Part shown: piece by piece, positions 9,791-37,201 of the stretch
How positions within the stretch are numbered: the stretch's first letter is position 1
How the letters are laid out: each line of letters begins with the position of its first letter
Origin: Amphiscolops sp. MND2022
Taxonomy: Eukaryota
Direction: 5' to 3'
NCBI GenBank assembly: GCA_964187785.1
Contig: OZ076409.1
Span: 52,020,001-52,084,000, forward strand
Length of the DNA: 64,000 nt
Notes under the pieces: model-generated
The model's database searches: none
The model's input: the letters and a program-made list of their open reading frames with translations, nothing else
What the model was told of the DNA's origin: nothing
Made by a program: the position numbers and the translations under genes

Positions 9791-11299
9791 AAATGTGCCT
9801 GACTCTTACAGTGGGTAATTTTTTCAGACACGAAAGGTCCATTTTTTGTTCAGTTCGTTTGTTCAACAACTTGGGCGAGGTTCAAAACGCGGAGGTTCAA
9901 AACACTCAAAATCTCAGAACCTTGTGCAAAACAAAAAAAAGAAACAATCGGACGTCCTGGAAAACAAGAAAAGAGACATTTACAATTTTTTTGGCACTAT
10001 CAGACATTTTTTCGAAGTTTTTTTGTTACTGGATCCCCTTTTTCGTACTTTGGAACAAACTGGATATTCTAAAAGCCTAAAAGGTCCACCTTTTCACAAT
10101 TTTAAACACTTCGCGCTTTTTGAGTTTTAGATATAGCGCCGACTTTGGCCATTCCCGGCTTGTTTTGGGTTAAAAAGGGCGGTTAAGGTGGTCCGTACAC
10201 CGTACGGATAACTAAAGGGAGTAACGAGTTGCTGAGCTATGGGTCGTTCCTTTTGCGCATCAACAGAGCATTGAAGCTCGGGCAGAGCACAAAAAAGGGG
10301 CGATGAAGTTCCTTCTGAGCGTAACCCGAGCGGTGAAGCTCGGACACAGCAGAGACAGGGAAGGCGGAAGCGGGTTGTAGCGTCAACCGGTCAATTATGT
10401 CCGGACACGGCTACAACTTGAACAATGGGGTGGTTTACTCATTGGCAGCCGACAACGTGTTCTTGATCGCCTTGCGGGTGCGTTTGGAGGCGTGTTTGAG
10501 GCGACTACGGGCAGTAAATTGTGATAAATCATATTCATCTTTCAGAAGAAAACTCAGATGTTTCAGTTCTATATCAGGAATCTTATGTAGCGCCCTTAAA
10601 TTCTGCAAATACTCCAAATCTTTTTGTTTTCTCAGGGAAATGAAATCTTTTTCAATACAGCAAACAAAGATGTTGTTTCTTTCAATTGCGAAAAAATGTC
10701 AGGAATTCGGTTTCTCCGACAATACCCATGAGCCAAGATACGGTTTTGATAAGATTTCAACACTTCTACCAGATACAACACTTCTACCAGATAAATATCA
10801 ACGCTAAAAATTTGATTTTGTGTCTGCAAACAATGTTATTATTAGCGTCGTGCCAGATTTTTGTTTTGAAATCCTTTTTCATTAGATTTTGCACAATTAA
10901 CGAGGATTTTTGCATGAATGGTCAAACCATAGCCCATAAATGAATAAGTTTTTTCATTGAGGGTTTTTGATCTTCAAGTCTAACAGTTTCAAATGCGTGG
11001 TGCAAACAACTTGCAGCTGATATTAAAACCGTTCACTTTTTTTCTTTCGTTTAACTTTTACTTCCTTTTTACTGGATGTTTGACTTTTTTGCGCGAAAAT
11101 TGTTTTTTCCCCAAAATTTTTCCAATGTCGTTTTTTTATGTCTCACTACCCCAAGTAGTTTGTATAGGAAAACAGTGAGAAATGAACGGATTCATTCAAC
11201 TGTCAATGTGAGTTCACTGAAACCTCGGTTTTCAAACAAAATCGGACCAATTTTATTTCGGATAATTGAATAGCCTAGGGCCATGCGCCGTAAACAGCC

Positions 11300-12704
11300 T
11301 ACTCGTAGACAGAATGGCAGTAAAGGGCGCTTGGCAGGACAAGGCTTTATTATTACAAAACATTGATGCTACTGTTTCGAGTGCTGTATTAATAGTTATG
11401 GATTGAAGAGTATACCAAACGCAGAAACGAGAAAGAAACTTTTTGAAATAGCTTGGCCTGTTGGACTACCAGTCCAAATTACGATTAACCAATCAGAGGC
11501 GCTTATTTTATGAAACTGTGTTGACAATGCTGTGTTAACATTTAGATACATTTACGTGCTGAATTAGATCAAAAGCCGAGTACCGCCAAGTGCTTCGCGG
11601 AGACAAACATATCAAAGTTAGCTGGTTACGGCTTTCTTCTCACCAAACTAGAATAGGACTGTTGGATGCATGCTTATATGATATGAAATAATTATGCCAA
11701 ATTTTATTGTTGACCAAGGAAAATAAAATTGAAACATTCCATTATTTGGAGCTTCCACTTCAACTAGAGTTGAAGTATGCCCTCCTTTGGTGATTGCCCA
11801 AAATAAATTCGGACAAGTAGGGCATCATACCTTTTGTAGTAAATGATGTGCATTTAAATATATATATATATCTCGTTGAATTACATGTACGTTAGCTGAG
11901 ATGATGTCCATGTAGCCGAAGTCGGCCTCGTAAACAAAATACCAAAGGCCTTTGATAGTTGTTTTTAGAACGAAGCTGTCGTCACGGCGCTGTTTTCAGA
12001 TAATTGTGATCTATAAACAGATTGTTGACGTTCTCAATTAGTGATGTCATGTAGATTTGGGTATGTATACCAGGAACACGTATTCCCGGGATACATTTCG
12101 TGACACTAATATCAAAACAACCCTCAAAACTGTTGATTTAAATTACATAAATAATTAACTTTTCCTTCTGTTCATCTTTCGTATGAAAACCACTAGAAGA
12201 CGGAAAGTTAAAGCGAGAAGCTGTAGAGAAACGGACATTTTGTCCCATTGTGATAACGTGGACGTGATCCTAGGTGGTGACAAGATTAACTTTATTCAGA
12301 GAGAATTAGCAATTACCACCAACAGTTCAGTTAGTCATCACGACACTGAGGCCTTTTCTCACTCTACCTATAGGGAGAATGCATCACAGCAAATTGAGAC
12401 TAAAAACATTGGAGGTACGGGTGGGACCACTAGGCCGGATAGACTCTTGGAGTCTATGGAAACGTTATCAGGGGAATTAAGTCTCAAGTTATCTCAAGTG
12501 ATCGGTTCACTCATGAACATCCTTCAAGCGCAGATAAGTAGAGCGATCAATTCTGCGATCATCGATAGTGTGATCCCAGAGATACAAAAAATATCGGTTT
12601 GCTGTCTTCTGGACAGAGAGACACCTTGTCCGGAATGTCCACTAATAATCACGATATAGAAACTTTTTCTCACTCTACCTATAGGGAGAATTTTTCACAG
12701 CAAA
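11300..12704 (+). mobile_element. Old LTR relic of a Gypsy family related to the 21510-37201 element, retaining the LTR-encoded Gag N-terminus
   Basis: ORF 12183-12659 (MKTTRRRKVKAR..DNVDVILG..LSLKLSQ..QISRAINSAI..VIPEIQ) aligns by eye with ORF 21499-22053 (MPSTRRQKAKAR..DNLDVMIG..FNLRLSQ..QINRAISTAI..VLPEIQ). Left boundary approximate. Confidence 0.75.
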
Positions 12705-12926: not shown

Positions 12927-13643
12927 CAATATTCTTCGCCAACCATGGGAGCGTTATCGCAAAATGTGAACGGTTTGAATTACTTACACAATGGCGAAAT
13001 TCCCTCAGAAATCAATTACTTTACCAACCCCGACGATGAATTTTTTATGCAAATGGCATTAACTTCGAATTCAAGAGCTCTCATCGGGAATCGAGGTCAA
13101 AAGTACTGCATGGAAGCATTCTCAAATCTGGAGTTATCCTATGATGATGTAACCACTCATGCTGAGGGGTCAATGGAAGTATCCTTGGGTGATTGCATAA
13201 TACACTTTGTTGAAGTCGTGTTCAACTTTTTCCCTTATTCACTGATGAATTTTCAATTTCTTGAAGAAATTTTCCAAACATTTGTTATGCCCGAGGTTGA
13301 AACCTTGCTGAATAGTTTGCAGGGAAAGTTTTTCTGCAGAAGAGGTGCCACGCGCTTGTTGGAAGTTATTACAGACTTACTCTGGCCCAATTCGAAATTG
13401 ATTGTCGTGGAATCCGAAGAAAGACAGCTGGAAGAAAAAATAGTGACAGAAAAACAAGCAATCTCATCGCTAGCTCGTTTCATAGAGAATAAATCGAAAT
13501 TCATCAACAGCCAACAAGCTTTCAAAATGAGTGCCGAAATTATATCGTCTTTCAGGGATCAAGAAATTAATAAACACTTGATATTTTGTTTCGTTGACAG
13601 TGTATTACTGAAACTGTATCAGTCCAGAGGCAAAGCGAAGTGA
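12927..13643 (+). CDS. Terminal exon of a PXA/PX sorting nexin (SNX13/14/19/25 type, Nexin_C domain)
   Basis: Long ORF preceded by the acceptor tttttcag (12926). Motifs DLLWPN and FRDQEINKHLIFCFVDSVLLKLY match the Nexin_C pattern. Upstream exons not identified. Confidence 0.65.
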   Translation, partial: QYSSPTMGALSQNVNGLNYLHNGEIPSEINYFTNPDDEFFMQMALTSNSRALIGNRGQKYCMEAFSNLELSYDDVTTHAEGSMEVSLGDCIIHFVEVVFNFFPYSLMNFQFLEEIFQTFVMPEVETLLNSLQGKFFCRRGATRLLEVITDLLWPNSKLIVVESEERQLEEKIVTEKQAISSLARFIENKSKFINSQQAFKMSAEIISSFRDQEINKHLIFCFVDSVLLKLYQSRGKAK

Positions 13644-18526: not shown

Positions 18527-19464
18527 TTACCAGTAATTACAACCCCTTCCACCCAACAACTTGAAACAGGCTAAAGATGGGGTTAAAGTTGCGATTGCCA
18601 TTGCTAGTGAGAGCAAGAAAGCGAGACATATTATGACCAAAAAGAGCGCTGCTAGTTTTGGATACCGTTTTTTCGTCGCTTTAAGTTCCCGTATATGCTC
18701 CTTCTGTTTAGGGAGGTACATTAAGAGAGGGGTAGTAACCACCTGCACAATTAGGGTCACCCCGAATGACCAGGCCACTTGTTTGCGATCTTCAAAAGTG
18801 TCGTTGAAGAACCGTTCGTCGGTGCCTATCTCGAAAGGAGCTGCCATACCATTGGCTATTGGGATTCCGATCGTCATCCCTACTATGAATGACGTAACCA
18901 AAAGGCTGTGGAAGAGGGCCTCCAGACCAGTCGGGCAAATCTCGATCAGCATCAGTGACCCCACGAGGTGACCCATGCCCTCGGGGATTGCCGAAATGAC
19001 GTCATCGGCAAAATAGAAGTAAGGGTTTCTTACAACATTGAAGATGGTCAAAAATTCGACTGAGTATTCTGTCACCAGATGCACAATGCGTGAAAAAAGA
19101 AAAATTCCTCTCCAAGATGTGTTTAGGAAAAATGTCTTCAATATATAGACGCCCAAAAGCTCTAATCCAGTTGTCACAAAGGTACTGATGGTTGTAATTA
19201 GAGGGGTCACTTTCGCCCAATTTTTTTTGACCTTTACACCTGCCGGGGACGAAATTCGTATAGTGACTGCCCAGAAAAAGAGGACGATGAAGGTCTGAAG
19301 AACTTCCCTGGATTGGAAGGCGTCCCAAAATGAATACGCTATTTCCTTCATCTTTGGCACGTAGATCACTTTTTTATCATGCAACATGAAAATACTGTTG
19401 AGAACAGCGGTGAAACAGACAATTGACATGATAGCCGAGACTGTTGAGAGGCAGAGATGTAAAA
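18527..19464 (-). CDS. BT1-family (folate/biopterin-type) MFS transporter, last exon
   Basis: Multi-TM ORF with VVRNPYF, EICPTGLEALFHSLL and C-terminal LACFKLLGGRGC. The acceptor position (19464) is inferred. Confidence 0.75.
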
Positions 19465-21498: not shown

Positions 21499-22053
21499 TC
21501 AATACTTTCTGTAAGAGCCACGTCCCGTGGTGTCTCTCAAATCACCAACGGACCGTGAATCCTTTTTCAATAATTTTGTTTTCAAGCCAGATGGATTTTC
21601 CCTATTTTCCTGACTACTAGGAGACATACTCATCTCAGTGTCCCTGTTCCCAGAGGAAGACATTGAACTCACAATATTCTGAATCTCCGGTAACACCTTC
21701 TCTGATATGGCGGTACTGATTGCTCTATTTATCTGACTATGTACCATGGCCATCATGGAATCCATCTCTTGAGATAACCTAAGATTAAATTCATTTGAAA
21801 AGGTTTCAAAGGATTGTCTTATGTCGTTTCGACCATGAGGCTCATTTCCTTGAATGAAATTTCCAAGATCATTTCTTGAGTGACTACCAATTTCTATGTC
21901 ACCATTAATGGAAGATTGGTCTATTACATCTGCTAACTCTCTTTCTAAAGGATTTTCACTCCCTATCATCACGTCTAAATTATCCATATCGGACAACATG
22001 TCCATCTCTTTGGATTTTCTAGCTTTCGCTTTCTGTCTTCTTGTGGAAGGCAT
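21499..22053 (-). CDS. Truncated Gag N-terminus (184 aa) encoded by the 3' LTR, ending in flanking host DNA
   Basis: Identical to Gag residues 1-181 except one D/N change. The last codons (RKY, stop) come from the TSD and flank. Expression unknown. Confidence 0.6.
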   Translation of the reverse strand: MPSTRRQKAKARKSKEMDMLSDMDNLDVMIGSENPLERELADVIDQSSINGDIEIGSHSRNDLGNFIQGNEPHGRNDIRQSFETFSNEFNLRLSQEMDSMMAMVHSQINRAISTAISEKVLPEIQNIVSSMSSSGNRDTEMSMSPSSQENRENPSGLKTKLLKKDSRSVGDLRDTTGRGSYRKY

Positions 22054-23140
22054 AAGAGTTTATTGCAAGAGATAAGAATTTAAATTAAGTTCTCAGGCTT
22101 GCAAACAGAGTATGTTGAAACGATTTTAACAAGTTTGAGTATTACGGTATCAAGGAAATTGAAAAAGTCCTTGGGACCTAGGGTCCACGGTATATATACT
22201 CAGGTTTACATGACTTGCAAAATAATGAGGGTCACGTTCTAAAAATAGCCTTCACAGCTATCTAAAAATAGCACCTACTATTTATAGCCATGAAGGCGGC
22301 ATGACGAAAGGGTCACTTCAAAGGGGTGATTTATTCAAGCGCCTTCAACAATTCCATATATAGAAGGATTGTAGGTCCAAGCATCCCTCAAGGCCTTTCA
22401 TATGTGAGGTTTAGCAACATTACATGCAATTACATTTGATCAACCATAACTTACATGTACCAACTCATTAATCTGAGTATTCATGTAAATTATTAATATC
22501 TAGCATCAAATGGTACAAATGGTCCAGTAATCTTCATCAAAACGAGTATTTATTAGAAACACCAATCATAGCCCTTATTTACCACTGTAAATTGCACTTT
22601 ACTTTAATTTGGACTCAGTGTCCATTTGCCGTAAATAGGCAGCAAATTACTACTAGCTGACGGCGCGTGGCCTTAGAGTCCTTTAATTTAGAATACTGCG
22701 CACAGTGAATGAAATGAATGGCGTGTTCTGATTGGCTAAGAATTTGGACGGACTGCGTGTCCAGCGAGACAGGAGAGGAAACATTTGAACTCGTTTCCTT
22801 TCCTGTACGCCTTGGTGTCCAATTTCTTAGCTAATACATTAAATATACAGTGTTTACATGCATCAATGTATCAAAATCAACTTCGTAGTTTTCAACTAAC
22901 CAAATGGTATTTCCGATTAATAATTTGCACAAGATTTTATATATAAGGCTGTCAAAACTGAAAATAGAATAATAGACATGCCGTAAAAATATTACAAATT
23001 CAGTTTGAAGTTTTTGTCCCGTCATGACAATGGGACACATGGTCCTTTCCTCTAGTTTATTGGCAGAGTACCTGGGAGGGCGCGAAAACAGCTGTAATTG
23101 ATGGTGTAAAAGTTCCCATCGCAGGCGGGAGCCTGCGACA
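21510..23140 (-). repeat. 3' LTR of the Gypsy element
   Basis: Direct repeat of 35571-37201 at offset 14061; only about 4 substitutions seen by eye. Confidence 0.97.
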
Positions 23141-23891
23141 CTCCCCCTGGCATGAGAAGAAAAGTTCCGGCTGTCATCCCGTCTAGAAATGCTCTCTTTC
23201 TTGCTTGCGTCTCCGCTAGCGTTTCTCCCACTGCGACCGTCTTGCTGATGTAATCATCTGCAGCTTCCTCGCGTATTTGATGTGTTGATTTACCACAGAT
23301 CACACAGTCCGAATAGGTCGATTCAGCTGTAGGCACCCCGATTTCCAAGTCATTAAAATGATTGGCCATAGAATCAATCGTCGGGGCATCTGATACGTAA
23401 GACCCACTCGATGTCGGTTGAGGGCAGTATTGTCCTCTGTCTGCATCTGGTGGGGATAGTGGCGTATCGACCATCGGGACAAGATTGCGGCACAAGTTTA
23501 TCGGGTGGTTCCGCTTAATTCTACTGTCTGCCCTTAGGGGCCCATTGCCTCTCCCCAGGCTAAAGTAAGTCTGGTCGAACTTAGGAAACGGAGGCAAGTT
23601 TGGCCTTCTGTGTTCGTTTGCCTGATTCGCGGCAGAAGAAGAGGTGTAGGGAATCGCTATGGGCTCGGACATCTGTGTTTCGACGCATAAGGCCATCTGA
23701 GCAACTTCTTCCGACTCATCCTCCGAGGAGGACAAGAAATCGGTTATCGAGGAAACGCTCCTGCATTCCATTGTCTCCTCTTCGTCGCTTGAAATGTAAA
23801 TGATCCCATCTCCTGGGGCAGCTCCTTGGAAGTCCTCCGGATAGGTCCTTTCGGGTTCGGAGTCATACAAAGGCGAGACAAGGCTATTCAT
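23052..23891 (-). CDS. Accessory ORF3 of the Gypsy element (279 aa, unknown function, not env-like)
   Basis: ATG-initiated open frame in the env position. Acidic N-terminus with IIYISSDEEE, a CVIC motif, no signal peptide or TM segment. The last 89 nt lie inside the 3' LTR. Confidence 0.75.
   Translation of the reverse strand: MNSLVSPLYDSEPERTYPEDFQGAAPGDGIIYISSDEEETMECRSVSSITDFLSSSEDESEEVAQMALCVETQMSEPIAIPYTSSSAANQANEHRRPNLPPFPKFDQTYFSLGRGNGPLRADSRIKRNHPINLCRNLVPMVDTPLSPPDADRGQYCPQPTSSGSYVSDAPTIDSMANHFNDLEIGVPTAESTYSDCVICGKSTHQIREEAADDYISKTVAVGETLAETQARKRAFLDGMTAGTFLLMPGGVSQAPACDGNFYTINYSCFRALPGTLPIN
23141..23148 (-). other. Polypurine tract
   Basis: Minus-strand AGGGGGAG directly abuts the TG of the 3' LTR. 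Confidence 0.85.
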
Positions 23892-25181
23892 ATCGAATCT
23901 TTTTTTGAATATTTTCTTCGCTATCTTGAAGGAATTTAGTGGTTTTCAATTCAGAAATGTTTGAAGAGGACGGCTGAATTCAAGAATGAAACTGAGAGGA
24001 ATAGCGGATTTATTTCCGACAGTCCGTGAGTCTCTTCGTTTCGTTTTTCCCGGGGTTCCGCTACCTCTCCAAGTAATAACTTCTCGACAACAAAATTCTT
24101 CCCTTTTGAATTCTTTCATCAAGCCGCAGAGTTGCTTTGTAATTGTCGGCGCCGCCTTAACTATCTATCAACAACTAAGTTAACACTTCTAACTTAAGAG
24201 CGCGGTCTCGAGTGTTTATTAACACTCATCAGATACTTGAGGATTTCAAGTGGGTGAAGATATGACGGCCAGCCACGCCGTCCACCATCGATATGCTCAG
24301 CCAATAAGAAAGCAGCAAAATTTCTCCCAAGCTAACATGGCTTCTCAAGGTCGCGAACCCGTATAAGGAATGATATAAAATGACCTTGAAAATAAAATAA
24401 AATAAAATAAAGTGAAACAAGATAAAATCATGAAATAACTCTGCAAAATAATAAAGTTTTCGAAATAAATAGGGGAAATGTAGATATCGCTGGCGGACCC
24501 TATCCACATAATGCCATAAATTGTAAATAGTAATAAATTTGACACCAAATTGTACAGCCACGAACTCCAATCTTGACATCTTGTCACATCGCCAATTCTT
24601 CTTTCAATTCTTTATCATCCAGTTGTATTATTCACTTCTTGTATTATCCAGTATTTAATCACCACATTTACTCTACATCGTAATTAATCCATAGTTAGTT
24701 TCAGTCTACAAGTCGTTTTTATTTATATATTTCTTTATATCTCCATCCCACTTTCATCTTCGGACTCAGCGTCCACACGTCCCTAATCCTACGGATCCGC
24801 AAGGAATACTCTGTCTAATCGACATCCAGTCCAGCTCGGTGATCTTAGTCAGTTTCAACATCCCCAACTTTCTTCACACATACGGTGCAGCAACTTCCAT
24901 CTTCATCGCTACATACTACTTCAGAAGCCGATTTGTGTCTTTGCGAGGATCTACTGATATACTGCCGGTACTGAATTCCAAGTAAGTAGTTGCTCTTCTT
25001 TTGTTTTGAATAGAGATTAGGCTTGATCAGGGCTTTAATCACTTTCATTGACTTCCTGTCCATATAACACAAGCGTTCACAAGTGTTCAAACAAATCAAC
25101 TTCCGGAAGATTTTTAAATGCGGTAAAATGGATTTTAATTCAGGAAGGTTCCCGCTTGATTTCTTCTCTTTTTATTTAGAC

Positions 25182-26876
25182 ATGTCGTCAGAGAACGTTC
25201 TCGAAGAAGCTACTACAATACCTCCTGGCACAGAGGGACAAGAACAGTCAGCAAATCCCCTCCCTGCCGTTGTCAGCTTAACACAAGTCATTCCCCAGGA
25301 GACTTTAACCCCCAGTCCATCAACAGAAGAGAGTGTCAGTGCATATGTAGAGCGCACATTACAAGAATTAGGGCCCCAGCATGAAGTTTGCTTCAACCCG
25401 ACCATTGAGGCCGAATCGACAGAGCCAACTCCGGAACAGCCCATACCAAAGGCATCCGTCTCAGATGCAATCGACAAGCCCATTGAAGGGAATGAGGGCC
25501 AGCCAGACGTATTAGTGGAGACTGAAACTCATGATGAAGAAATGAGTGAAGAGGGCCAATTTAAGCTCAAAGCAGACTACTTTCAAACTGATACTAGTTC
25601 GGTAGAGGAGCTTTACGATAGTGCCGGGGCGGATACCACGACTCGTAAGCTCACATTTATAACTTCTGGGGTTGCTGATCCAGAGGAGGAGGGACAAGAA
25701 GATCTGGATACAGGCCGCCTAGCTGAGACATCCAGTGTTGTTACTCGCGTACGACAATCGAAGGAAAAGACTGGCCTTACTGTCCCTGGTCGAGCATTAC
25801 TTAAGAAGTATTTCGATGAGGCCCCACCGGTTCACTTGCCTGTTGGACACCGAACCCTGGCTCTTAGTGAGCCACAAGTCCATGCATTACTCAAGGTTGT
25901 CTCAGATGAAGCCGTTTCGTCGTCGTTGCACACGATGCATTCACTGGTCAACGAAGTTCTCAAAGCCGGCAGTAGGATGAACAGGGAATGGACCGTACCC
26001 GGAGGTTCTCGGGGTCCCCGTACAAATTCTGAGAGCTCAGCAGACGATACATCCCGAGGCGGACACACTACCGATGACTATACAAGTGGGGCTTTAAGTT
26101 CCGATGACGATTTCATCACCCGGCGACCCACACTTCCCCAAATGTCGACGGACAATCAGGCTACTACGACTGAAGCAGTTACGTCCAGTGAAATGATCCC
26201 TAGTCCGGGGTTTACTGCCTCTGACTACAGGCCATTATCCCAGTTGTGTTCTCCTCAATCACCCGAGGGTCCCAAAAGACCCGTTCGAAAACGCAGGAAG
26301 GTGGCTGGGTCTACAGGAAAAGTCATGAAAGAAGCTTATTTTAAAGGCATAAAATGGACCAAAACCTTTGTGACCGGCCCCTTGGACCCAGAGCACAATA
26401 AACACAAATTTTATTGTCAAATCTGCAAGTCCAATATTTCCATGTTCTCAAAGGGGGCCAGGGAAATCGTCAGGCACTACCAGTCAGAGTCGCACCTTCG
26501 AAAAGACCAGCGCTGGAGGTACGAAAACCTACGGCTTGTGGACCCGGTGACTGGCCAAGTGAGACACGAAGTCCGGGGCAGAGACGGACAAGTCCTTACG
26601 CCAGTCGAGTTGGAGAAGGAAAAACCCCTTTTTGAGAACGCCGTTTTAGTTGACATAGGGGACAAGCACCCCTTTTACGACGACTACATTGCCGGAACAA
26701 TCGCTACACCCAGCTCTGAAGAAATTAGAATTTGTACTCAGATTTCCCTGATTGGCCACTTCGTCCCTCAGTGTGGAGACGTCCTGTTACTCCAGACTTT
26801 GTGGAACCAGATTGGCATAGCAGCCAACCACAAGGAACCATTTTCACCTCTCGAGTGGGGCGCTACCACTTTGACC
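25182..26876 (+). CDS. Antisense cargo gene, coding exon 1: acidic low-complexity region, NLS, BED/C2H2-like zinc finger
   Basis: ATG at 25182 follows a pyrimidine tract and AG (25178-79). Contains PKRPVRKRRK and FYCQICK..IVRHYQSESH. Phase-0 donor GTAAGT at 26877. Confidence 0.85.
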
Positions 26877-26958
26877 GTAAGTATTCTTTCCTTTCTGACT
26901 CCGTTATCGTCGTAAGGTTTCCAATTGTCATCGTCTCATCTATCCCTTTATATTTCAG

Positions 26959-27444
26959 ACTATCTTCCACCACATTTTCCTCTGCGGAAGGAGCGACATA
27001 GCACACCACGTGAACGTCTCCGGCAAGTACTCCCTGGAGTTTGAACCTTCAGGCCTTCATTGTATTGTGTCAATCCGTTTCTGGAAGGCAGACACTTTGT
27101 GTACCGTTCGCCTCATGCAGTACCGCCTCGCCAGTGACCATGCCGCTGGACTGTTGACAGCAATAGCGCGCATCTTCTCATTCTTGTCAGTACAGCCTCA
27201 GTTGGTCAGTGTGTCCTGCTGTCCGTCGGAACTCATTCCTATTTTGGAACAGTCGGGCCTGTTAACGAAAGGGATCCAGTACCCATTTAGATTTGATACA
27301 TTTTCTTTGCCCAAGCTCATGCATCAGAAATGGGGAAGCGTCTTCGGAGGGATCAACTTTTTCTCTCAACTCCGATTCTTAGTCACATTCCTAGATGGTT
27401 GTCAGGACGAGATCTGGGCCACTCAGTCTCCTGAACTCGGCAAG
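26959..27444 (+). CDS. Antisense cargo gene, coding exon 2
   Basis: Acceptor tatttcag (26958), open frame TIFHHIF..PELGK, phase-0 donor GTAAAT at 27445. Confidence 0.8.
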
Positions 27445-27518
27445 GTAAATATAATCAAATCTGTTTTGGCGGGTGGACTAATAGTCAGATTTCGCTCCCA
27501 AGTAATCCTTTCGTTTAG

Positions 27519-27735
27519 GCGATTTCAACTTGTTCTCTTGAAATCACATCAGTTCCTGCAATATGTTCCGAGCTGCTGGCGGACTGGAGGGCGGTGCATG
27601 ATTATATGACCCGAGTTGCTCCGACGCAAGAAAACCAGGGAGTGAGGCATAGACCCCAAAGTTTAGAGTGGAGCATAATTGGTGATGAGTTCTTTCATCT
27701 CAAACTCGAATTCTTTGGCCGAATTGTCCGTGATT
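27519..27735 (+). CDS. Antisense cargo gene, coding exon 3
   Basis: Acceptor cgtttag (27518), open frame AISTCS..LLADWRAVHDYM..HLKLEFFGRIVRD, phase-1 donor GTTAGT at 27736. Confidence 0.75.
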
Positions 27736-27884
27736 GTTAGTATTTTCTTTTCTTTCATGGGCCAATTATGTGTATAAGCATAGTTACTCGCATTCAAGCT
27801 CACGTAGGGCCATTATTGTCCGAACGGACTAGGGGTCTACTCATCTATCACTAGTGTATTCTCAAAAGGTTCGTTGTTTTGCAG

Positions 27885-29038
27885 ATACCAAGTGCTTCGA
27901 GGGCAGTCTCTCTCAGCGGAAAGACTCTGGCTTCCTTACGTACCGCGAGTTACGGCAGTTCGTGCGGAAGCTCTGCTACAGATCCTTGCTTCCAAAACAT
28001 TTGCCTGATGAGGCCGACTGGACTGGGCTACACTCATTACAGGGAGAGTCGCTCACTCAGCTTTCGTCACGGGATTTCCTCAATCGGTTAAAACTTAAAG
28101 GAGACCTGGACGCAGCTTGTCGGGCCAGAGCCAAACGTGAGGCCGACGATCCCCAAAGTGTGTACACTGATTCTGAAGCCGCGGTTGAAGCAGTTAAGGA
28201 AGAATTTGCCTCCAAGGCTCGCAGTTACCTGGTTCGCCTTCTGGAACGTTTCCTTGATGACATCAGCTTCAATTCTGACATCGTTAAGGGTATGAGTTGC
28301 TTTGACCCTGTGGTCCTCCTTTCCGTGAGCTTTGATCAAGCTGCTCTTTGTTTTTCTACCCTCTATTACTCCTTCAGCTTGCGAGGATGGGTGTCCAATA
28401 CCCCAGAGACTGAGGCCCGGGATGAGTACCTTGAGTTCGTGGACTTCTTCCGTACCAAGTACCACGACTTTAAAGATGTTCCAGAAACTTTTACTGACAT
28501 GATTGGGTTACTGACTCCCATGCCTGAGTTGAGGTCCCGTCGGCACTTGTTCCATTTATTCCAGTTGAGTTGTCTTTGCTTGACTTCCCAGATTCCCAAG
28601 CTGCCAGCTATCAAGTTCCAGGGCGTAAATAGCAATGATCCTCGCTGTCGATTGTCCAGTGTCTTACTTCCTGCTCAGTCCTATTTAGCAAACGTGGTTG
28701 GGTCAGTAGCTGTATGTACAACTGAGGCTTATTTGGAGAAATATCGCGCGCTTGAGTCCAGATTCATCAGTGGGAATGTTGCAGGTGACCCCTGGGTCCA
28801 CATTGACAGCTTTGGCAAGGCCAATTTCCTTAAGACTCTTATTTCTGCTCAGAAGGCTTTGAAAGATAAACCTCGCTCTGCTAGTCGGTCACCTTCGTCA
28901 TCGGTATCCAGTACTGGATGTCAGCGGCGTAAACGCAGTCCAATCAAAGATAAGAAAGGAGTGAAGTTTGGGGCTGTCTCCTTTTCTAAAGCACCCACTG
29001 CCAGTGATACTCTGTTGCCCGGGAGCTCTAAAGACTAA
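27885..29038 (+). CDS. Antisense cargo gene, last exon (hAT-transposase-like helical C-terminal half)
   Basis: Acceptor gttttgcag (27884) joins in phase 1 to the long ORF ending TAA at 29038. The four exons total 3552 nt, or 1183 aa plus stop. Confidence 0.85.
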
Positions 29039-29236
29039 ATGTACATAGAGTACATTTGTTTCATATTCTGTCAACTTGTATTTATCATATTATCTCGTTT
29101 GTTGAAATTTCTTGAGTTTATTTGTAGTATTTCTTGATTTTTGTTTTCATTTGTATCAGTTGGGAAGTCCAGTGAAAAAATAGTAAGAAGATCAAGTAGC
29201 CTAAAAGGCTGTCTGGACGTTAATTTACATATCTAG

Positions 29237-32200
29237 TTAATATCTGTATTCGTCAGTGAAGTTGGGGGTTGGGTTAGGTCGAAGATTATATTTCCCTCCT
29301 CTAGGGCTAGAAGTTTCTTCATCTTTTCCATTTTCCGATATTCCGGGCACGGTAATATCTACGCCTCCTTTTGAAGCAATTTCCGCATTTTCTAAATCAT
29401 TTGTGACGTCATTTTGATTTGCCGTCCCACGTGGCGTTTCGCTCAGTGGGGACGACGCGTCACGGCTGCCAGCCGGTCTCGGCCTTATTTCATTCTCGTT
29501 GACGTCATTTGCATTTTCCGCCCCAGTAGTCGATTCATGTGGAAGGGACGACGCGTCACGGCTGCTAGCCGGTCTCGGCCTTATTTCATTCTCGTTGACG
29601 TCATTTTCATTCATTCTCTCGCTGCTGCATTCACTTTCATTTACTCTGCTGCTTTCATTCTCGGTGACGTAATAGTCGACTCCACCATTCGTGGCGTCTT
29701 GCGGCAGACGCGTGGCCGTGTCTGGCCAATCATTTTTCTTCGGCTCGAATTGCTCGTATTCAAAGTCCGCTTCCCATGAAATGGTATACAAATCATCTTG
29801 CGGTATTACGATTTCTTCATCAGGCTGTAATTTCTCTTCTTGGTATTTGTCCTCTAACGGAGCATTTGGGCCAAATTTTTTGAGCCTGATCCGGTGCAAA
29901 ATCTGCGTTTTATTCGTATTTAAACGACGCACTATGTAATTGTTATTTGGTAGAGTTTTTTGAACGACAAAAGGACCAATCCAACGGAAGTCCCTGAATG
30001 GTATTTTAGAGCCTTGACTATCCGCTTTTGGTTGAAGAACAAAACAATAGTCCTTTTCTTGTAGCGGAGCCGCTTTGGCCTTGCGGTCGTAGTATTCTTT
30101 GTACTTTAAATACGACTGCATAATATTCTTTTTGGTCTGATCAATGAGGATTTGCGTCCTCTGCTGTAATTCTTCCGCGAATTCAGTCGTCGGTAGGAAA
30201 TTTTTGTTAGGATTATTCCCTAATTTGTGATCCAGGACGTTATAGGGAATGCGGCCATGAAAGACTTTGCTAGGCTCACAACCAATACTAGCGTGATAAG
30301 TAGTGTTATAGTTAAGCACAGCTAATGGTAAATATTTGTGCCATTGACGACGGTATTCCCCTGAGGCCATCTTTAGGTTGGTTTTTAAAGAGGCGTGTGT
30401 CCTTTCGAGTTTACCAATAGTTTGCGGATGTTTAGTAGTGGCACACTTCAATGTGATCCCCAATATTGCAGTAATTTCTTCTAAAATTTTTGATGTAAAT
30501 GCGGATCCCTTGTCCGTGATGAGTGTTGTTGGCAAATACGAATGTTTCGTCATGATGTCAATTATCACCTTGGCTACGTTTGCGGCTGTTGCCTCAATTA
30601 GTGGGTAGGCGAATAAATATCTTGAAAATACATCTATTGCCGTCATCACCGTTTGGTATCCACCGCTAGTTGGTAAGTTTGGCAATAAATCGATTTGCAT
30701 GGCATCTTCTGGGCCTAGGTCCCATTCAGGTAAATTCAGTAATTCTGGGGTGATTACCGTGTTGGGGACTCTTTTGTCCTTGGCACATGTTTCGCAGCCT
30801 TCTACCCATTTTTTGACGTGTTTAGCAATTCCGGGGTAGTAGTATTTCTGGCGAATTTCTTGTAGCATTTTAGAAATGCCCGGGTGTCGATGTGCCGTGC
30901 CATGTATTGCTTGTAATAATTCTTTGAGCAAATGCTTTGGCAATAAGATTTGATGATATTTGACCTGTCCGGTTTCATCGTAGTACTGCCGTGTCACTAT
31001 CTCGTCTTTGAGGATTATTCGGTCTATGTTGTTCAAGTAATACTTGTACCGAATATCCTGTTGAAGGATTTCTTCAGAGTATTCTTCTTTTTGAAGTTTC
31101 GCCTTCAATTGGAGGAGAATCGGGTCTCTGGACTGTTCAAGCAGTATCTGATTTGTTCTTCTTAATTTCTGCGTGAAATTAGTAATCTCTTCGACGGTAT
31201 TTTCTGATATAGCGTCAATTTGGATTACTGTCTCAGGGACTATGAGACCTTTTTTGGATTGTTGTTTCCGTTTCCAAATCTGTTCTTCTGTTTCATTGTC
31301 CTCCTCAGTGAAGAAAATTGGCTCTTCTTCTGATACGCCGGCCGATTGGACATTGACTTCGATTGGTCTAGTTTCTACGTCCTCTCGTATTTTCAGGACC
31401 AACTTTTCGGTAGGGTCCATTTCCATGCGGGACAAGTAGTCTGCCGCTGTATTGTTTTTGCCTGGAATGTGAGCTATAATGAAGTTGAATTGAATGACAA
31501 AATCACAAGCATTCCAGAGAGGCGGTGGAATTATCTTTGTCTGGAAGAACCTCGTGACCGATTTGTTATCTGTGAGGATAATCACGGGTTGAGGTGTTCC
31601 CCAGAAGATATGTCCAAACTCCTTAAATACATAATATATAGCTAGGAATTCCTTTGCATATATCGACATTTTAAGTTGAGAAGGCGTGAAAGTTTTGGAT
31701 CCATATGCAATCGGCGCATAGGACTTTTTAACAGAAGTGTATTTCTGATTTGGGTCGTCTTCGGTCAATATGGCGTAACCGGCTGCTGTAAAACTCGCGT
31801 CAGTCATAAGGACCAGTTGTTTGTTCGGCAGAGGTTGTTTCAACGCCAATTGACTACATCGGTCTAAATCGCGGTTGATCTCATTAAATTGTTCAACTAG
31901 CTCTTGCGTAACTAGTACTTTTTCATCCTTTTTGAGCAATTGGAAGAAGGGAACTAGTTTTTCGGATAGCCTTGGAATATAATTCCTGTAGTAATTGAGG
32001 AAACCAAGGTAGCGTTGTAAGGCCTTCTTGGACTTTGGGAATTTCGTCTTTTCCAAGAAGTTAGTGATTCTTTCTTTTTGGGGTTTTACGCCTTCAGGTG
32101 TAATGGTTCTCCCAAGAAAGTCAATTTCAGTAGCGCCGAAATGGCACTTGTGCATGGACAATTTCAATCCTGCTTCTCTGATACATTGGAAGGTTGCTCT

Positions 32201-34402
32201 TAAGTTGACGATAAGCTGGTCGGCGTCTGTCGCCGCAACACCAATATCGTCCACATATTGAGCACATTGGTCTGCTTTTATGACACGATCCAAGTATTCC
32301 CTCATGAAACTGGAGAAGGCCGACAGGGCTCTACTGAGTCCTTGGGCTAATCTTCTATATGCAAATGTCCTGCTAGCGAAGTTAAATGCTAGCATTTCAA
32401 TCGACTTCTGGTCTGCCATAGGAAGGCAATGATAAGCTTGAGAACAGTCAAGTTTGCAAAAGAGCTTTTTGCCTGCCATATGTTGCGCCGCATCCGTCAG
32501 GGTACTGACTGGGTGATTGTTGTTGATATAATCGTCTGAGATGAGATTATTTATTTTCCTCAAATCAACCAACAGTCTCAATTTCCCATTGGGCTTTTTC
32601 TGCGCGAAGATGGGACTGGCATACTTTGAGAATGATAATGTCGTTATAATACCATATTTATGAAGTAACGCCAGTTCGACCAATATGTCCTCTTTGAGGT
32701 TGACTGGTGTAGGTAGGCTCTGACTGTAGGCAGGTGATTCGTCTTTTGGGGTCAGTTTGACCGTAAATTCCTCATTGACACCAATGTCAAATCTATGGCG
32801 CGCAAAGATGTCATGGAATTCCACTAATAGAGTTTCTATTTGTCTGATTTCATGTTGTTGTAACATTGAATCCTTCCAATCAAAATTACTGAGGAATTTT
32901 CGACGAGATTCCGCATCGTCGTGCGGGTTGAGTTGTTCTAAACTTTGCAGATTTCGTAATTCTTTGAGAATTCTTTGTTGTATTGGGGTGTGGGTCGTTT
33001 CGTCCCCTGGGTTTTCAGGCGTCGGGAACCAATATTGTTCGTATTGGTCATTATTTCTGTTAGCTTTAAGAAGGCTACTTATATAATAAATAGCGTCGTC
33101 TTCATTTTCATTCAGTAAGTGCCAGGTGGACACTGGGTCTATTGGCCTGACGTGTTTCATCTGTTCAGGGGTCATCACTGAGAAGTTTGCAATGTGCATC
33201 CCTTTCTTTATTTTATAGGGTTGATCAGTGAAATTGTTAACGTGTATTCTCATAACCCCTTCGTGTAGTGTGACTATGGCGGCGCAGAAGGTTATGTCGC
33301 CTTCTTCGTGCAGAAGATCGCTGGGTTGCAATATGCCCGTAACTGCATTTTCTGCGTAAATTTGTGATTGAATGGGTATGACCACATGGTCATTGGGCGG
33401 AATTGTGACATCCTCAGGATTGAGGATGGGTTCCAAAACATTTGAGTATTTATGGTCAGCCGTCTTGAGTTGCATCGAAAAATAGGGGAAGTTGAGTATA
33501 CCTTGGCGCATATCCAGGACAGTGTGGTTCCTTTGAAGGAACATTAGTCCAATTATGGGGCTTGACAGTTTTTCCATTACAATGAAAATTTCGTGAAATT
33601 CTATGTCGCCCACTTCGAATTTTAGTTCGACTGTGCTCTTTGGGGTTTCTAAGTCTCCATTTGCGACCATTATTTGGAAAGATGGGGCAGGACCTTCTTT
33701 TACAATGGATTGAGGGGCCAATAGGCGTATTTTCCTGAGGTCTGCCTCCGGGATTGCACTGGAGTGAGCTCCAGTGTCTATCAGGCCAACTAGAGTTAAT
33801 TCCCCAAAGTCCATTGGGAAATAGAGCATTCGTCGTTTGAATTTAAGTCCAAGGTTTGTTGAAAGGGGAACGTATGGTAATTCTCCTTCGTTGGTCACTA
33901 GAAGGTGTAAGAAGACTGTCTCGTCTAAAAGACTATTAGGAGCCTTGTGGTCCTCCTGTGTGTGTATGGTGTCTACTTCTTGTATAGTTGCCTCAAAGTT
34001 CGGCTGCCAAAGATCAATGAGGGCCCGAGACAGTGTGTTATCTTCAATGTCTGGGTCGTCCTCGTCGTCAGTTGGGGGGTAATCTTCATTTCGAAATTGT
34101 AAATTGGTTTTGTCATATAGTTCTTCGTCCCAGTATGGGTCTTTGCCATACTCGGGGTCATAGTATTGAGGGTTATAATCTTCGACAGTTTTTAAAGGGC
34201 GAAAGTGAGTTTCCAAATCGTTGCGGTTACTGTTCCGTCGATATAAGTATGGATGATCACTGTGGATGATATATTGAGTTTCTCTGCGGGCGTCGGCCAT
34301 CTGCTGCTGCCAGACAGTCGATGGCATCCCTGTGGTGTCGTTTTGAGTTTGTTTATATGTAATGTTTGCAGGGTCAGATATGACGTACTGTCGTACTGAC
34401 AT
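29237..34402 (-). CDS. pol: Pol polyprotein: aspartic protease, dUTPase-like spacer, RT, RNase H, integrase with GPF motif
   Basis: LIDTGA; LDCSQAYH and YVDD; LMTDAS, KEFLA, TDNKS; HGTAHRH..CETC, IDLL, TDKG, LERTH; WIGPFVV; terminal YNLRP. 1721 codons without a stop. Confidence 0.97.
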   Translation of the reverse strand: MSVRQYVISDPANITYKQTQNDTTGMPSTVWQQQMADARRETQYIIHSDHPYLYRRNSNRNDLETHFRPLKTVEDYNPQYYDPEYGKDPYWDEELYDKTNLQFRNEDYPPTDDEDDPDIEDNTLSRALIDLWQPNFEATIQEVDTIHTQEDHKAPNSLLDETVFLHLLVTNEGELPYVPLSTNLGLKFKRRMLYFPMDFGELTLVGLIDTGAHSSAIPEADLRKIRLLAPQSIVKEGPAPSFQIMVANGDLETPKSTVELKFEVGDIEFHEIFIVMEKLSSPIIGLMFLQRNHTVLDMRQGILNFPYFSMQLKTADHKYSNVLEPILNPEDVTIPPNDHVVIPIQSQIYAENAVTGILQPSDLLHEEGDITFCAAIVTLHEGVMRIHVNNFTDQPYKIKKGMHIANFSVMTPEQMKHVRPIDPVSTWHLLNENEDDAIYYISSLLKANRNNDQYEQYWFPTPENPGDETTHTPIQQRILKELRNLQSLEQLNPHDDAESRRKFLSNFDWKDSMLQQHEIRQIETLLVEFHDIFARHRFDIGVNEEFTVKLTPKDESPAYSQSLPTPVNLKEDILVELALLHKYGIITTLSFSKYASPIFAQKKPNGKLRLLVDLRKINNLISDDYINNNHPVSTLTDAAQHMAGKKLFCKLDCSQAYHCLPMADQKSIEMLAFNFASRTFAYRRLAQGLSRALSAFSSFMREYLDRVIKADQCAQYVDDIGVAATDADQLIVNLRATFQCIREAGLKLSMHKCHFGATEIDFLGRTITPEGVKPQKERITNFLEKTKFPKSKKALQRYLGFLNYYRNYIPRLSEKLVPFFQLLKKDEKVLVTQELVEQFNEINRDLDRCSQLALKQPLPNKQLVLMTDASFTAAGYAILTEDDPNQKYTSVKKSYAPIAYGSKTFTPSQLKMSIYAKEFLAIYYVFKEFGHIFWGTPQPVIILTDNKSVTRFFQTKIIPPPLWNACDFVIQFNFIIAHIPGKNNTAADYLSRMEMDPTEKLVLKIREDVETRPIEVNVQSAGVSEEEPIFFTEEDNETEEQIWKRKQQSKKGLIVPETVIQIDAISENTVEEITNFTQKLRRTNQILLEQSRDPILLQLKAKLQKEEYSEEILQQDIRYKYYLNNIDRIILKDEIVTRQYYDETGQVKYHQILLPKHLLKELLQAIHGTAHRHPGISKMLQEIRQKYYYPGIAKHVKKWVEGCETCAKDKRVPNTVITPELLNLPEWDLGPEDAMQIDLLPNLPTSGGYQTVMTAIDVFSRYLFAYPLIEATAANVAKVIIDIMTKHSYLPTTLITDKGSAFTSKILEEITAILGITLKCATTKHPQTIGKLERTHASLKTNLKMASGEYRRQWHKYLPLAVLNYNTTYHASIGCEPSKVFHGRIPYNVLDHKLGNNPNKNFLPTTEFAEELQQRTQILIDQTKKNIMQSYLKYKEYYDRKAKAAPLQEKDYCFVLQPKADSQGSKIPFRDFRWIGPFVVQKTLPNNNYIVRRLNTNKTQILHRIRLKKFGPNAPLEDKYQEEKLQPDEEIVIPQDDLYTISWEADFEYEQFEPKKNDWPDTATRLPQDATNGGVDYYVTENESSRVNESECSSERMNENDVNENEIRPRPASSRDASSLPHESTTGAENANDVNENEIRPRPAGSRDASSPLSETPRGTANQNDVTNDLENAEIASKGGVDITVPGISENGKDEETSSPRGGKYNLRPNPTPNFTDEYRY
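29449..29606. repeat. In-frame duplication with a 96-bp period in the integrase C-terminal tail
   Basis: gacgacgcgtcacggctgc..gacgtcattt at 29451 and 29547; peptide NDVNENEIRPRPA(S/G)SRDASS occurs twice. Confidence 0.9.
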
Positions 34403-34431
34403 CTTGTTACATATTTGGAGTCGTGGCGAAA

Positions 34432-36114
34432 TTAGTTTTTTGAGTCCGTTTTTCGTGGGTTTGATTGGCTCGAAGATGCAGTTTCGGGGTTAGTTGATTT
34501 TTTAGACAACTTTTCATCGCCGGAGTTTTCATCGGCTTTATCTTCGGGTCTTGTCCTTTTGGGACGTAGATGTGCTCCAGCCCCTTTCCAGCATCTTTCA
34601 ACGGGGTGATTTTTCTTTCCGCAAGTAGGACATTCTGGGTATGTGGGACGTTGGGGCTTTTTGCCATTTTTGTCCTCCAATTCTTTCTTCTTTTTCAATT
34701 TGGGGCAGCTCTTATAAAAGTGGCCTGTGGCTTTACAATAAGAGCATTGTGCGTCCTTATTAGTATTTATGCCATTAGAGAGCAGATTGTTGTTACTGGT
34801 GGACGCAGAGGCCATTGTGGCGATTGGCAAATCGTCTGACTCTTCTAATGCGTTGAGTTCAAGCTCTCTTTCAAGATGAGCGACGATTTCCTCATATGTC
34901 CCGTTCTCCAGGCGGGCCATATTGACAGATCGTTTTAATTTTGGAGGCAGTTTTGCATACAATAAGCTGTCAATCATGCTTTTTGCATTCTCACCGAAAG
35001 CTTTTTCTGCCCCCTGGTTCAGTTCTTCTAAGAAATCCGGCAGTTTCATGGTATTCGGATCGAAAGTCAGCCGATGCCATTTGTGTTTTGCCGTTGCTTG
35101 GGATTCCGGTTTGACATATTTTCTCCGGAATATGATCAGCACGTCCTCGAGTGTTTGGCGGTTAATTGAGTTTATGTTCCTGAAGGTCTGCAAGGCTCCT
35201 TTCCTGAGCAGTGAATGGAAATGGTTAATTTTCATTTGCTCTGTCATGGCCGGTTGCATTTTGATCATTGTGTGGAACAAATCTTCAAAGAGTTCGAATT
35301 TCTCACTCTTTCCGTCAAACGTCATAGGGGTTGTTTGGACAGGCCGGATAGTCATCGTTTGGGGTTTGTTTTGCAAATTGACTAGTACATCAGCCAATCT
35401 ATTGAGCGGGTCCTGAGGTGGCTCTGTGACCTCTGGTTCTGGCGCTGGCAGAGTGGTGTCCAAAGAGACATTGTGGTTAGATTGCTGTCTCTCTAGGTTC
35501 GGGATTGAGTGGATTCGTCCAGTAAGAAATTCAGGTATAGGCTGTTGGGCTTCGTTAGCTCCTGTCACCATGTAAGAGCCACGTCCCGTGGTGTCTCTCA
35601 AATCACCAACGGACCGTGAATCCTTTTTCAATAATTTTGTTTTCAAGCCAGATGGATTTTCCCTATTTTCCTGACTACTAGGAGACATACTCATCTCAGT
35701 GTCCCTGTTCCCAGAGGAAGACATTGAACTCACAATATTCTGAATCTCCGGTAACACCTTCTCTGATATGGCGGTACTGATTGCTCTATTTATCTGACTA
35801 TGTACCATGGCCATCATGGAATCCATCTCTTGAGATAACCTAAGATTAAATTCATTTGAAAAGGTTTCAAAGGATTGTCTTATGTCGTTTCGACCATGAG
35901 GCTCATTTCCTTGAATGAAATTTCCAAGATCATTTCTTGAGTGACTACCAATTTCTATGTCACCATTAATGGAAGATTGGTCTATTACATTTGCTAACTC
36001 TCTTTCTAAAGGATTTTCACTCCCTATCATCACGTCTAAATTATCCATATCGGACAACATGTCCATCTCTTTGGATTTTCTAGCTTTCGCTTTCTGTCTT
36101 CTTGTGGAAGGCAT
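34432..36114 (-). CDS. gag: Gag (560 aa), starting inside the 5' LTR
   Basis: Capsid-like FDGKSEKFELFEDLF region and two CCHC knuckles (CSYCKATGHFYKSC, CPTCGKKNHPVERC). The first 181 codons lie within the LTR. Confidence 0.95.
   Translation of the reverse strand: MPSTRRQKAKARKSKEMDMLSDMDNLDVMIGSENPLERELANVIDQSSINGDIEIGSHSRNDLGNFIQGNEPHGRNDIRQSFETFSNEFNLRLSQEMDSMMAMVHSQINRAISTAISEKVLPEIQNIVSSMSSSGNRDTEMSMSPSSQENRENPSGLKTKLLKKDSRSVGDLRDTTGRGSYMVTGANEAQQPIPEFLTGRIHSIPNLERQQSNHNVSLDTTLPAPEPEVTEPPQDPLNRLADVLVNLQNKPQTMTIRPVQTTPMTFDGKSEKFELFEDLFHTMIKMQPAMTEQMKINHFHSLLRKGALQTFRNINSINRQTLEDVLIIFRRKYVKPESQATAKHKWHRLTFDPNTMKLPDFLEELNQGAEKAFGENAKSMIDSLLYAKLPPKLKRSVNMARLENGTYEEIVAHLERELELNALEESDDLPIATMASASTSNNNLLSNGINTNKDAQCSYCKATGHFYKSCPKLKKKKELEDKNGKKPQRPTYPECPTCGKKNHPVERCWKGAGAHLRPKRTRPEDKADENSGDEKLSKKSTNPETASSSQSNPRKTDSKN
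34435..34441 (-). promoter_or_regulatory. -1 ribosomal frameshift heptamer A AAA AAC
   Basis: Gag ends TCA AAA AAC TAA. The -1 frame reads CTA ATT TCG..AAG ATG without a stop into the pol ORF. Confidence 0.85.
35559..35570 (-). other. Primer-binding site TGGTGACAGGAG
   Basis: Starts with TGG immediately after the terminal CA of the 5' LTR. The cognate tRNA is not identified (similar to a Leu-type PBS). Confidence 0.85.
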
Positions 36115-37201
36115 AAGAGTTTATTGCAAGAGGTAAGAATTTAAATTAAGTTCTCAGGCTTGCAAACAGAGTATGTTGAAACGATTTTAACAAGTTTGAG
36201 TATTACGGTATCAAGGAAATTGAAAAAGTCCTTGGGACCTAGGGTCCACGGTATATATACTCAGGTTTACATGACTTGCAAAATAATGAGGGTCACGTTC
36301 TAAAAATAGCCTTCACAGCTATCTAAAAATAGCACCTACTATTTATAGCCATGAAGGCGGCATGACGAAAGGGTCACTTCAAAGGGGTGATTTATTCAAG
36401 CGCCTTCAACAATTCCATATATAGAAGGATTGTAGGTCCAAGCATCCCTCAAGGCCTTTCATATGTGAGGTTAAGCAACATTACATGCAATTACATTTGA
36501 TCAACCATAACTTACATGTTCCAACTCATTAATCTGAGTATTCATGTAAATTATTAATATCTAGCATCAAATGGTACAAATGGTCCAGTAATCTTCATCA
36601 AAACGAGTATTTATTAGAAACACCAATCATAGCCCTTATTTACCACTGTAAATTGCACTTTACTTTAATTTGGACTCAGTGTCCATTTGCCGTAAATAGG
36701 CAGCAAATTACTACTAGCTGACGGCGCGTGGCCTTAGAGTCCTTTAATTTAGAATACTGCGCACAGTGAATGAAATGAATGGCGTGTTCTGATTGGCTAA
36801 GAATTTGGACGGACTGCGTGTCCAGCGAGACAGGAGAGGAAACATTTGAACTCGTTTCCTTTCCTGTACGCCTTGGTGTCCAATTTCTTAGCTAATACAT
36901 TAAATATACAGTGTTTACATGCATCAATGTATCAAAATCAACTTCGTAGTTTTCAACTAACCAAATGGTATTTCCGATTAATAATTTGCACAAGATTTTA
37001 TATATAAGGCTGTCAAAACTGAAAATAGAATAATAGACATGCCGTAAAAATATTACAAATTCAGTTTGAAGTTTTTGTCCCGTCATGACAATGGGACACA
37101 TGGTCCTTTCCTCTAGTTTATTGGCAGAGTACCTGGGAGGGCGCGAAAACAGCTGTAATTGATGGTGTAAAAGTTCCCATCGCAGGCGGGAGCCTGCGAC
37201 A
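35571..37201 (-). repeat. 5' LTR of the Gypsy element
   Basis: TG..CA ends. On the minus strand: CCAAT near 36792, TATAAATA at about 36347-36340, AATAAA at 36125-36120. Confidence 0.97.

Follow-up and report, generated by a model that had tools for sequence, protein, structure and literature searches.

What kind of gene takes the place of env in a Ty3/Gypsy retrotransposon that has none? The question was raised by a full-length element in a 64,000-nt stretch of the Amphiscolops sp. MND2022 assembly (contig OZ076409.1), referred to below as the window. Here a third open reading frame (ORF3) runs on the minus strand through the polypurine tract (PPT) into the 3′ long terminal repeat (LTR). ORF3 is real, conserved and apparently undescribed. 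Our preferred reading, to which we give a probability of about 0.4, is that its sequence describes a nuclear accessory protein that binds SUMO (small ubiquitin-like modifier) and keeps the element expressed.

ORF3 and its relatives

A preliminary description made from the letters alone had placed here, in the env position, a 279-aa ORF with neither signal peptide nor transmembrane helix, reading through a coding PPT, and had likened its placement to that of retroviral nef or sag. These statements held. The best 19-aa hydropathy window of ORF3 scored only 1.04, and hydropathy (no dedicated signal-peptide predictor was used) gave no hydrophobic stretch at the N-terminus, where residues 1–29 include 6 acidic ones. 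Among near-full-length relatives, 3/147 reached a hydropathy of 1.6. Because hydropathy was low in ORF3 and in nearly all of these relatives, ORF3 was judged not to be an envelope protein. From the mapped LTR ends, the PPT is coding (P-G-G-V) and the last 89 nt of ORF3 lie inside the 3′ LTR. At the other end gag starts within the 5′ LTR and reads through the primer-binding site (PBS); therefore both LTR/internal junctions are crossed by ORFs, as had been claimed. The IIYISSDEEE motif (residues 30–39) and the CxxC (CVIC, 196–199) were also found as described.

A word-indexed protein search returned 100 matches, 99 of which were real relatives of ORF3 (26–99% identity, all unnamed), and an exhaustive search among 50%-identity representatives returned 280. 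Clusters among the relatives had 66, 163, 128 and 80 members. Only 1 of 273 metagenome matches was a relative, and none of 62 pattern matches in viral contigs was. Before relatives were counted, a short chance overlap (P0100) and a repeat protein (P0301) were dropped as spurious.

In young copies, the 66-member cluster of this element, the frame was whole in 14 of the 15 listed members, and the remaining one shifted near the PPT. Full-length ORF3 was carried by 12/14, 9/14 and 5/14 listed members of other clusters; all these copies were called proteins, a source in which broken copies are under-counted. The CxxC proved conserved (C196 in 236/251 rows, C199 in 244/255), as were C134 (225/241) and H178 (201/232), so that these four residues were kept at 87–96%.

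One DNA relative, L001, is 34% identical in ORF3 and was used for a codon test. At identical residues, synonymous differences were found in 35/62 codons of the ORF3 body and in 6/7 of the distal U3-coded tail, but in only 2/10 where the PPT and the opening bases of the LTR are coded (P=0.04 relative to the body, 0.015 relative to the distal tail). By this pattern of codon change, the LTR-coded tail of ORF3 is selected as protein. The LTR opens with a 9-bp hairpin (window 23118–23139, minus strand) that is near-identical in L001 (about 1194–1215), an element only 34% alike in ORF3. Because synonymous change is low and the hairpin is present in both elements, the PPT/hairpin block with Cys257 is in part a DNA or RNA signal; on codon evidence this most invariant block of ORF3 is partly constrained as nucleic acid and should not be over-read.

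This constrained block (2/10 synonymous, P=0.04 against the body) also speaks for the view that ORF3 is merely an open frame, kept by DNA constraint and recent copying and lacking any protein function. That view is already largely refuted and we give it almost no weight, since the frame and its motifs were kept down to 26% identity and synonymous change was plentiful both in the body and in the distal U3 part (35/62 and 6/7). Comparison of the relatives thus showed that a Ty3/Gypsy lineage has in ORF3 a true accessory gene, conserved and non-env.

The AlphaFold model of ORF3 was mostly disordered (predicted template modeling score, pTM, 0.32), with a helix at residues 59–75 and a confident hairpin at 203–241. 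Putative metal ligands were the one CxxC and the conserved H129, C134, H178 and C257, around which model confidence was low. No Pfam family was matched by ORF3, whether a DNA-binding, GDSL or DEDDy domain; 81 aligned members gave 6 scattered weak matches (E≤0.05), none of them to a Nef, Sag or Bet family. Best scores were E=0.98 in a PDB sequence profile search, E=3.0 in a Foldseek search of the PDB with the model, E=0.015 in a viral structure search (to a low-complexity protein) and Z=5.5 in a VIA fold search (on the helical hairpin), and an ESM Atlas search gave only matches under 0.9. Because the model is poor, the fold searches indicate neither novelty nor absence. ORF3 was assigned to no family or fold.

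The SUMO-interacting-type motif

Residues 30–36 matched the published SUMO-interacting motif (SIM) pattern SIM-a (PMC3631770). The fit to a SIM pattern suggested earlier was thereby borne out, and it extended to the family: 143 of the 176 relatives that cover the region, in an alignment of 316 sequences, kept SIM-a. So did 26/26 hand-chosen subfamily examples, a selection that omitted one distant group, and most deep branches of a 32-row tree (midpoint-rooted for drawing only). Two conditions named in the preliminary description as refuting it, a frame broken in most young copies and a SIM that is not conserved, were checked and did not come true. None of four other proteins of the element (gag, pol and the products of two antisense exons, 3258 aa in total) contained the pattern. 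Aliphatic residues stood at positions −4, −3 and −1 in 173, 160 and 170 of the 176 relatives, and the free position varied (Y in 125, C in 33, I in 8 and W in 3). S35 is encoded by AGC here and by TCG in L001, a switch of codon family that preserves Ser. The motif lies in a low-confidence, disordered region of the model (predicted local distance difference test, pLDDT, about 50), and its Ser-Ser-acid tail presumably provides CK2-type sites. On the strength of the motif, we consider that ORF3 rather probably binds SUMO.

The same residues, Y-x-S-S-D-E, form what we take to be a phospho-FFAT-like pattern (FFAT, two phenylalanines in an acidic tract), and ORF3 might then be a cytoplasmic Nef-like adaptor with a basic leader that binds membranes. 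A loose FFAT-like pattern was found in 111/176 relatives, a clade without the SIM retains the Tyr, and the leader is both basic and hydrophobic. However, 41/176 relatives, multi-member clusters included, have Cys or Ile where the Tyr would stand, the acidic tract is downstream, and there is no Gly2 for myristoylation. The SIM is favoured over the FFAT-type reading because the core stays aliphatic while the free position varies, and the cytoplasmic adaptor appears improbable.

Several observations weigh against a nuclear, SUMO-binding ORF3. By chance, 3.9% of 20,000 shuffled ORF3 sequences contained the SIM-a pattern, and 33/176 relatives failed it, many through single changes. One clade of 5 (support 100/100) lacks the SIM core and retains Y-x-S-S/L-acid. 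Only 1/6 identical residues of the SIM was synonymously changed relative to L001, versus 35/62 in the body (P=0.09), and a contribution at the DNA level is therefore possible at the SIM as well. In two of the other clusters only 9/14 and 5/14 listed members were full length, with broken copies under-sampled. No classical nuclear localization signal was seen in ORF3 by inspection. Finally, a SIM gives no direction of effect: the SIM-acid region could serve activation or RNA export.

LxCxE and BC-box motifs were rejected in ORF3 by inspection, and 26 selected members showed no SUMOylation site that is conserved.

Expression and proposed function of ORF3

Ahead of the ORF3 ATG lies an in-frame basic leader (Table 1). 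Of 14 relatives with extended N-termini, 13 have a leader of this kind in frame, a count biased by longer gene calls, which favour open frames, and so does L001. Where it reads K-I-A-K-K it stands 2, 6 or 7 codons from Met, and the sequence ahead of the leader is unrelated. Its first three codons show only third-position differences from L001. For the Ile codon of the leader, here ATA at 23924–23922, position −3 is A and position +4 is G, both here and in L001, and the upstream frame is closed by a stop at 23948. We put at even odds that a near-cognate start at this ATA yields an extended ORF3 isoform with a basic tip.

No ATG occurs between 23991 and the ORF3 ATG, and TCTCAG at the acceptor is common to L001. 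Because acceptor-like sites precede this ATG-free stretch and a donor-like site is present at 36515, production of ORF3 from a short spliced RNA is plausible, as judged by splice-site scores that were hand-set and crude. No longer fused form of ORF3 scored, which is a weak test. An AATAAA at LTR position 80 (window 23056–23061, minus strand) overlaps the final codons of ORF3, and a U-rich stretch comes after it; this AATAAA may terminate a short ORF3 RNA.

Splicing from 36515 to 23992 would leave the genomic RNA intron-retaining, and ORF3 might be a factor of the Rev/CERV kind, by which unspliced genomic RNA is exported or protected, perhaps by way of the LTR-start hairpin, nearly identical in L001. 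CERV, from the C. elegans element Cer1, is described as a nuclear protein under phospho-regulation, whose Cys-rich loop is required for export (PMC10309623); in ORF3 an S-P motif is conserved, as are Cys residues. On the other side, CERV has 517 aa and exons shared with gag, whereas the ORF3 frame is closed just upstream by the stop at 23948 and the search for longer fused forms, weak as it is, gave none; the splice sites themselves are only predicted. An export factor seems unlikely to us.

Window 24270–24305, about 400 nt upstream of ORF3, has a CCAAT box and a GC-rich word, and similar ones are present at LTR positions 400–490. The site upstream of ORF3 is a possible internal, perhaps two-way, promoter. 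Foamy virus tas and bel2 are run from an internal promoter (PMC3798896), and a Tas/Tax-like transactivator is the least improbable of the alternatives, although we still doubt it. Its acidic N-terminus and helix 59–75 would activate, the Cys/helix module would bind the LTR or its host factor, and the SIM would tune the activity. The 11 acidic residues against 1 basic in ORF3 30–62, the conserved R231 in a basic helix (225–241), and the 3′ position, with a site resembling CCAAT some 410 nt upstream that is common to L001, are consistent with such a protein. Yet the upstream DNA match to L001 is weak (two colinear 9-mers were obtained in 84/2000 shuffles, and one 9-mer lies inside the coding leader), and ORF3 matched no Pfam DNA-binding family.

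For the SUMO-binding accessory protein, the following scheme is proposed. A short RNA spliced to the acceptor about 100 nt upstream would probably make ORF3, with two starts, the near-cognate ATA, adding a basic leader of 10–11 aa, and the ATG. The product would be an adaptor that is mostly disordered. The SIM at its N-terminal end, with a phosphorylatable Ser-Ser-acid tail, would bind SUMO or SUMOylated nuclear proteins, and its C-terminal Cys/His and helical-hairpin module would bind metal together with either nucleic acid or a second partner. As a net effect, and this is the weakest step, the element would stay expressed through competition with, or displacement of, SUMO-dependent silencing factors. 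SUMO is required for transposon silencing guided by PIWI-interacting RNA (piRNA) in flies (bioRxiv 10.1101/533091) and for endogenous retrovirus silencing in mammals (PMC10144533), and it is because of this requirement elsewhere that relief of silencing by ORF3 is suggested.

The element and its surroundings

The Ty3/Gypsy element is young, intact and recently inserted; its features are collected in Table 1. The two LTRs (TG...CA on the minus strand) differ at 4/1631 positions, and membership of Ty3/Gypsy was indicated by TG...CA LTRs, target duplication, PBS, PPT, pol order and CCHC gag. The gag product matched DUF1759 in Pfam (E=2.7e-5) and, weakly, the CCHC knuckle zf-CCHC_2 (E=0.052). An A-AAA-AAC slippery site directly precedes the gag stop, with pol in the −1 frame. 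A dUTPase-like domain was located between protease and reverse transcriptase (pol residues 358–440, window about 33170–33420, minus strand; PF00692, E=4.7e-5, 23.6 bits against a cutoff of 22). The acidic tail of the integrase contains two in-frame 96-nt repeats (window 29404–29611).

Table 1. Positions of features of the Ty3/Gypsy element in the window
Feature	Position	Strand	Remarks
Full-length Ty3/Gypsy LTR retrotransposon	21510..37201	-	15,692 bp; CTTTC target duplication at 21505-21509 and 37202-37206
5′ LTR	35571..37201	-	1631 nt; carries first 544 nt of gag
CCAAT box in 5′ LTR	36798	-	putative promoter element
Candidate splice donor in 5′ LTR	36515	-	putative donor
gag	34432..36114	-	560 aa; start at LTR position 1088; reads across LTR end and PBS
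PBS	35570-35562	-	inside gag reading frame
pol	29237..34489	-	−1 frame; protease, dUTPase-like, reverse transcriptase, RNase H and integrase, ordered as in Gypsy (Pfam)
Antisense gene	25182..29038	+	predicted coding exons 25182-26876, 26959-27444, 27519-27735, 27885-29038
Upstream splice sites of antisense gene	donor 24982, acceptor 25179	+	predicted
Candidate splice acceptors 23992, 23974	23974..23992	-	about 100 nt upstream of ORF3; putative use
In-frame basic leader KIAKKIFKKRFD	23892..23927	-	ahead of ORF3 ATG; L001 counterpart 428-460
ORF3, non-env accessory protein	23052..23891	-	279 aa
SIM-a-like motif	23775..23804	-	residues 30-39, Ser-Ser-acid tail
Residues 49-62, second Ser/acid tract; helix 59-75 (predicted)	23667..23747	-	sequence and structure model
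Conserved H129/C134 and D-T/S-P-x-S-P-P	23448..23507	-	residues 129-148; alignment
H178, CxxC (196/199), helical hairpin 203-241	23169..23360	-	hairpin pLDDT about 90
PPT	23141..23148	-	8-nt purine run, translated as part of P-G-G-V in ORF3
3′ LTR	21510..23140	-	1631 nt; first 89 nt encode ORF3 tail

The region from pol to the 3′ LTR is 6.1 kb long, and ORF3 is separated from pol by about 5.3 kb with an antisense multi-exon gene, which the preliminary description had not noticed. Once its four predicted exons are joined, this gene has 1183 codons without an internal stop; the predicted GT-AG introns are of 82, 74 and 149 nt, with low scores for 2/3 donors. A C2H2 finger was matched weakly, below the Pfam cutoff. 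For exon 4, 93 relatives were found, in clusters of up to 177 members, and searches of PDB sequences, Pfam, Foldseek and the ESM Atlas gave no match; the TRP28 domain (PF04195) of the Retand antisense ORF was not found in the gene by Pfam. The relatives of exon 4 and of ORF3 have in common six longest contigs of equal extent, one of only 21 kb, which is indirect evidence that the two genes travel together.

The exon-4 model was aligned with Hermes (8edg_A) over residues 293–570 (164 aligned, Z=4.5, root-mean-square deviation 6.1, rank 24 among tied rows), and exon 2, to our eye, presumably resembles the RNase H strands of a hAT transposase. Possibly, the gene is a catalytically dead hAT transposase; because the Hermes match has a Z of 4.5 among tied rows, a hAT origin is a lead only. 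The element is in any case an env-less retrotransposon with two conserved accessory genes and coding overlap of both LTR junctions. It is a long shot that it represents an envelope-less animal lineage whose layout is that of a complex retrovirus and which has two genes for counter-silencing. One would be the SIM-bearing ORF3, which, together with its non-AUG-extended isoform, would jam SUMO-dependent silencing; the other, antisense and spliced, would encode a DNA-binding protein derived from a dead hAT transposase.

Elsewhere in the window, a decayed piece at 12183–12593 (plus strand), 40% like the LTR-coded N-terminus of gag, is by its sequence a remnant of a related element. A BT1-family transporter ORF lies at 18527–19429 (minus strand; Pfam E=4e-8) and, by eye, a further exon of a BT1-type gene at 46097–46483 (minus strand); if this is its exon, the gene may span the element. 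A weak match to a sorting-nexin C-terminal domain (E=0.003) was obtained at 12945–13643 (plus strand). Local duplications occur at 41153–45360 and 52962–54661 (spacing 2.85 kb and 847 bp), and a 200-N gap at 49128–49327. ORF pieces at 7066–10807, 59308–59832 and 61582–62330 we take by eye to be BEL/Pao, pogo-type and MULE transposon remnants.

Comparison with known systems

The nef gene of human immunodeficiency virus and the sag gene of mouse mammary tumour virus code across the PPT into U3. DNA viruses attack SUMO with SIM proteins, and cytomegalovirus IE2 and herpesvirus ICP0 are viral regulators with a SIM. The latter two resemble ORF3 in having an aliphatic core and a Ser-acid tail in a disordered nuclear regulator, a resemblance of a short motif only rather than a claim of homology. 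As an accessory ORF at the 3′ end, ORF3 is like nef, sag and foamy virus tas/bel2 (PMC3798896); unlike these retroviral genes, it belongs to an element with no env and has no Pfam match, Gly2 or membrane helix, so that the likeness is positional only.

In the literature searched, which lacks most subscription papers, neither this element nor a retrotransposon ORF3 bearing a SIM is described, although supplements or repeat libraries could hold such a description. Nor did it give a retrotransposon-encoded SUMO antagonist. SUMO is a hub common to piRNA-guided and KRAB/TRIM28 transposon silencing (bioRxiv 10.1101/533091, PMC10144533). With a small, multi-copy, conserved SIM protein it can be tested directly whether silencing at this hub is countered by retrotransposons of animals, and the SIM-less clade is a natural control within the ORF3 family. 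Even if the SUMO role fails, an env-less retrotransposon is left with two conserved accessory genes, both LTR junctions coding, and probably non-AUG initiation.

Plant Retand, Grande and RIRE2 elements are alike in their long pol-to-3′ LTR region with a conserved antisense gene that bears a transposase-like label (PMC11963269, PMC7264820). Unlike them, as far as these sources describe them, the present element has an animal-type host, an antisense gene that is predicted to be spliced and has a C2H2 finger and no TRP28, and a sense ORF3 beyond. CERV of Cer1 (PMC10309623), compared here by description only, is, as ORF3 would be, a lineage-specific, non-env regulator belonging to an LTR retrotransposon of an animal, with a Cys-rich part and phospho-Ser control; it differs in its 517 aa, gag-shared exons and three folded domains, ORF3 being 3′ and mostly disordered. 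Gypsy-type elements of bdelloid rotifers, animal elements as well, likewise combine a pol that includes dUTPase with a non-env ORF3, for which expression through spliced messages is said to be typical (PMC5408684). The rotifer ORF3s described there are GDSL esterases, DEDDy exonucleases, coiled-coil or membrane proteins, none of which the present ORF3 matches in Pfam; unlike them, it carries a SIM-like motif and extends into the LTR.
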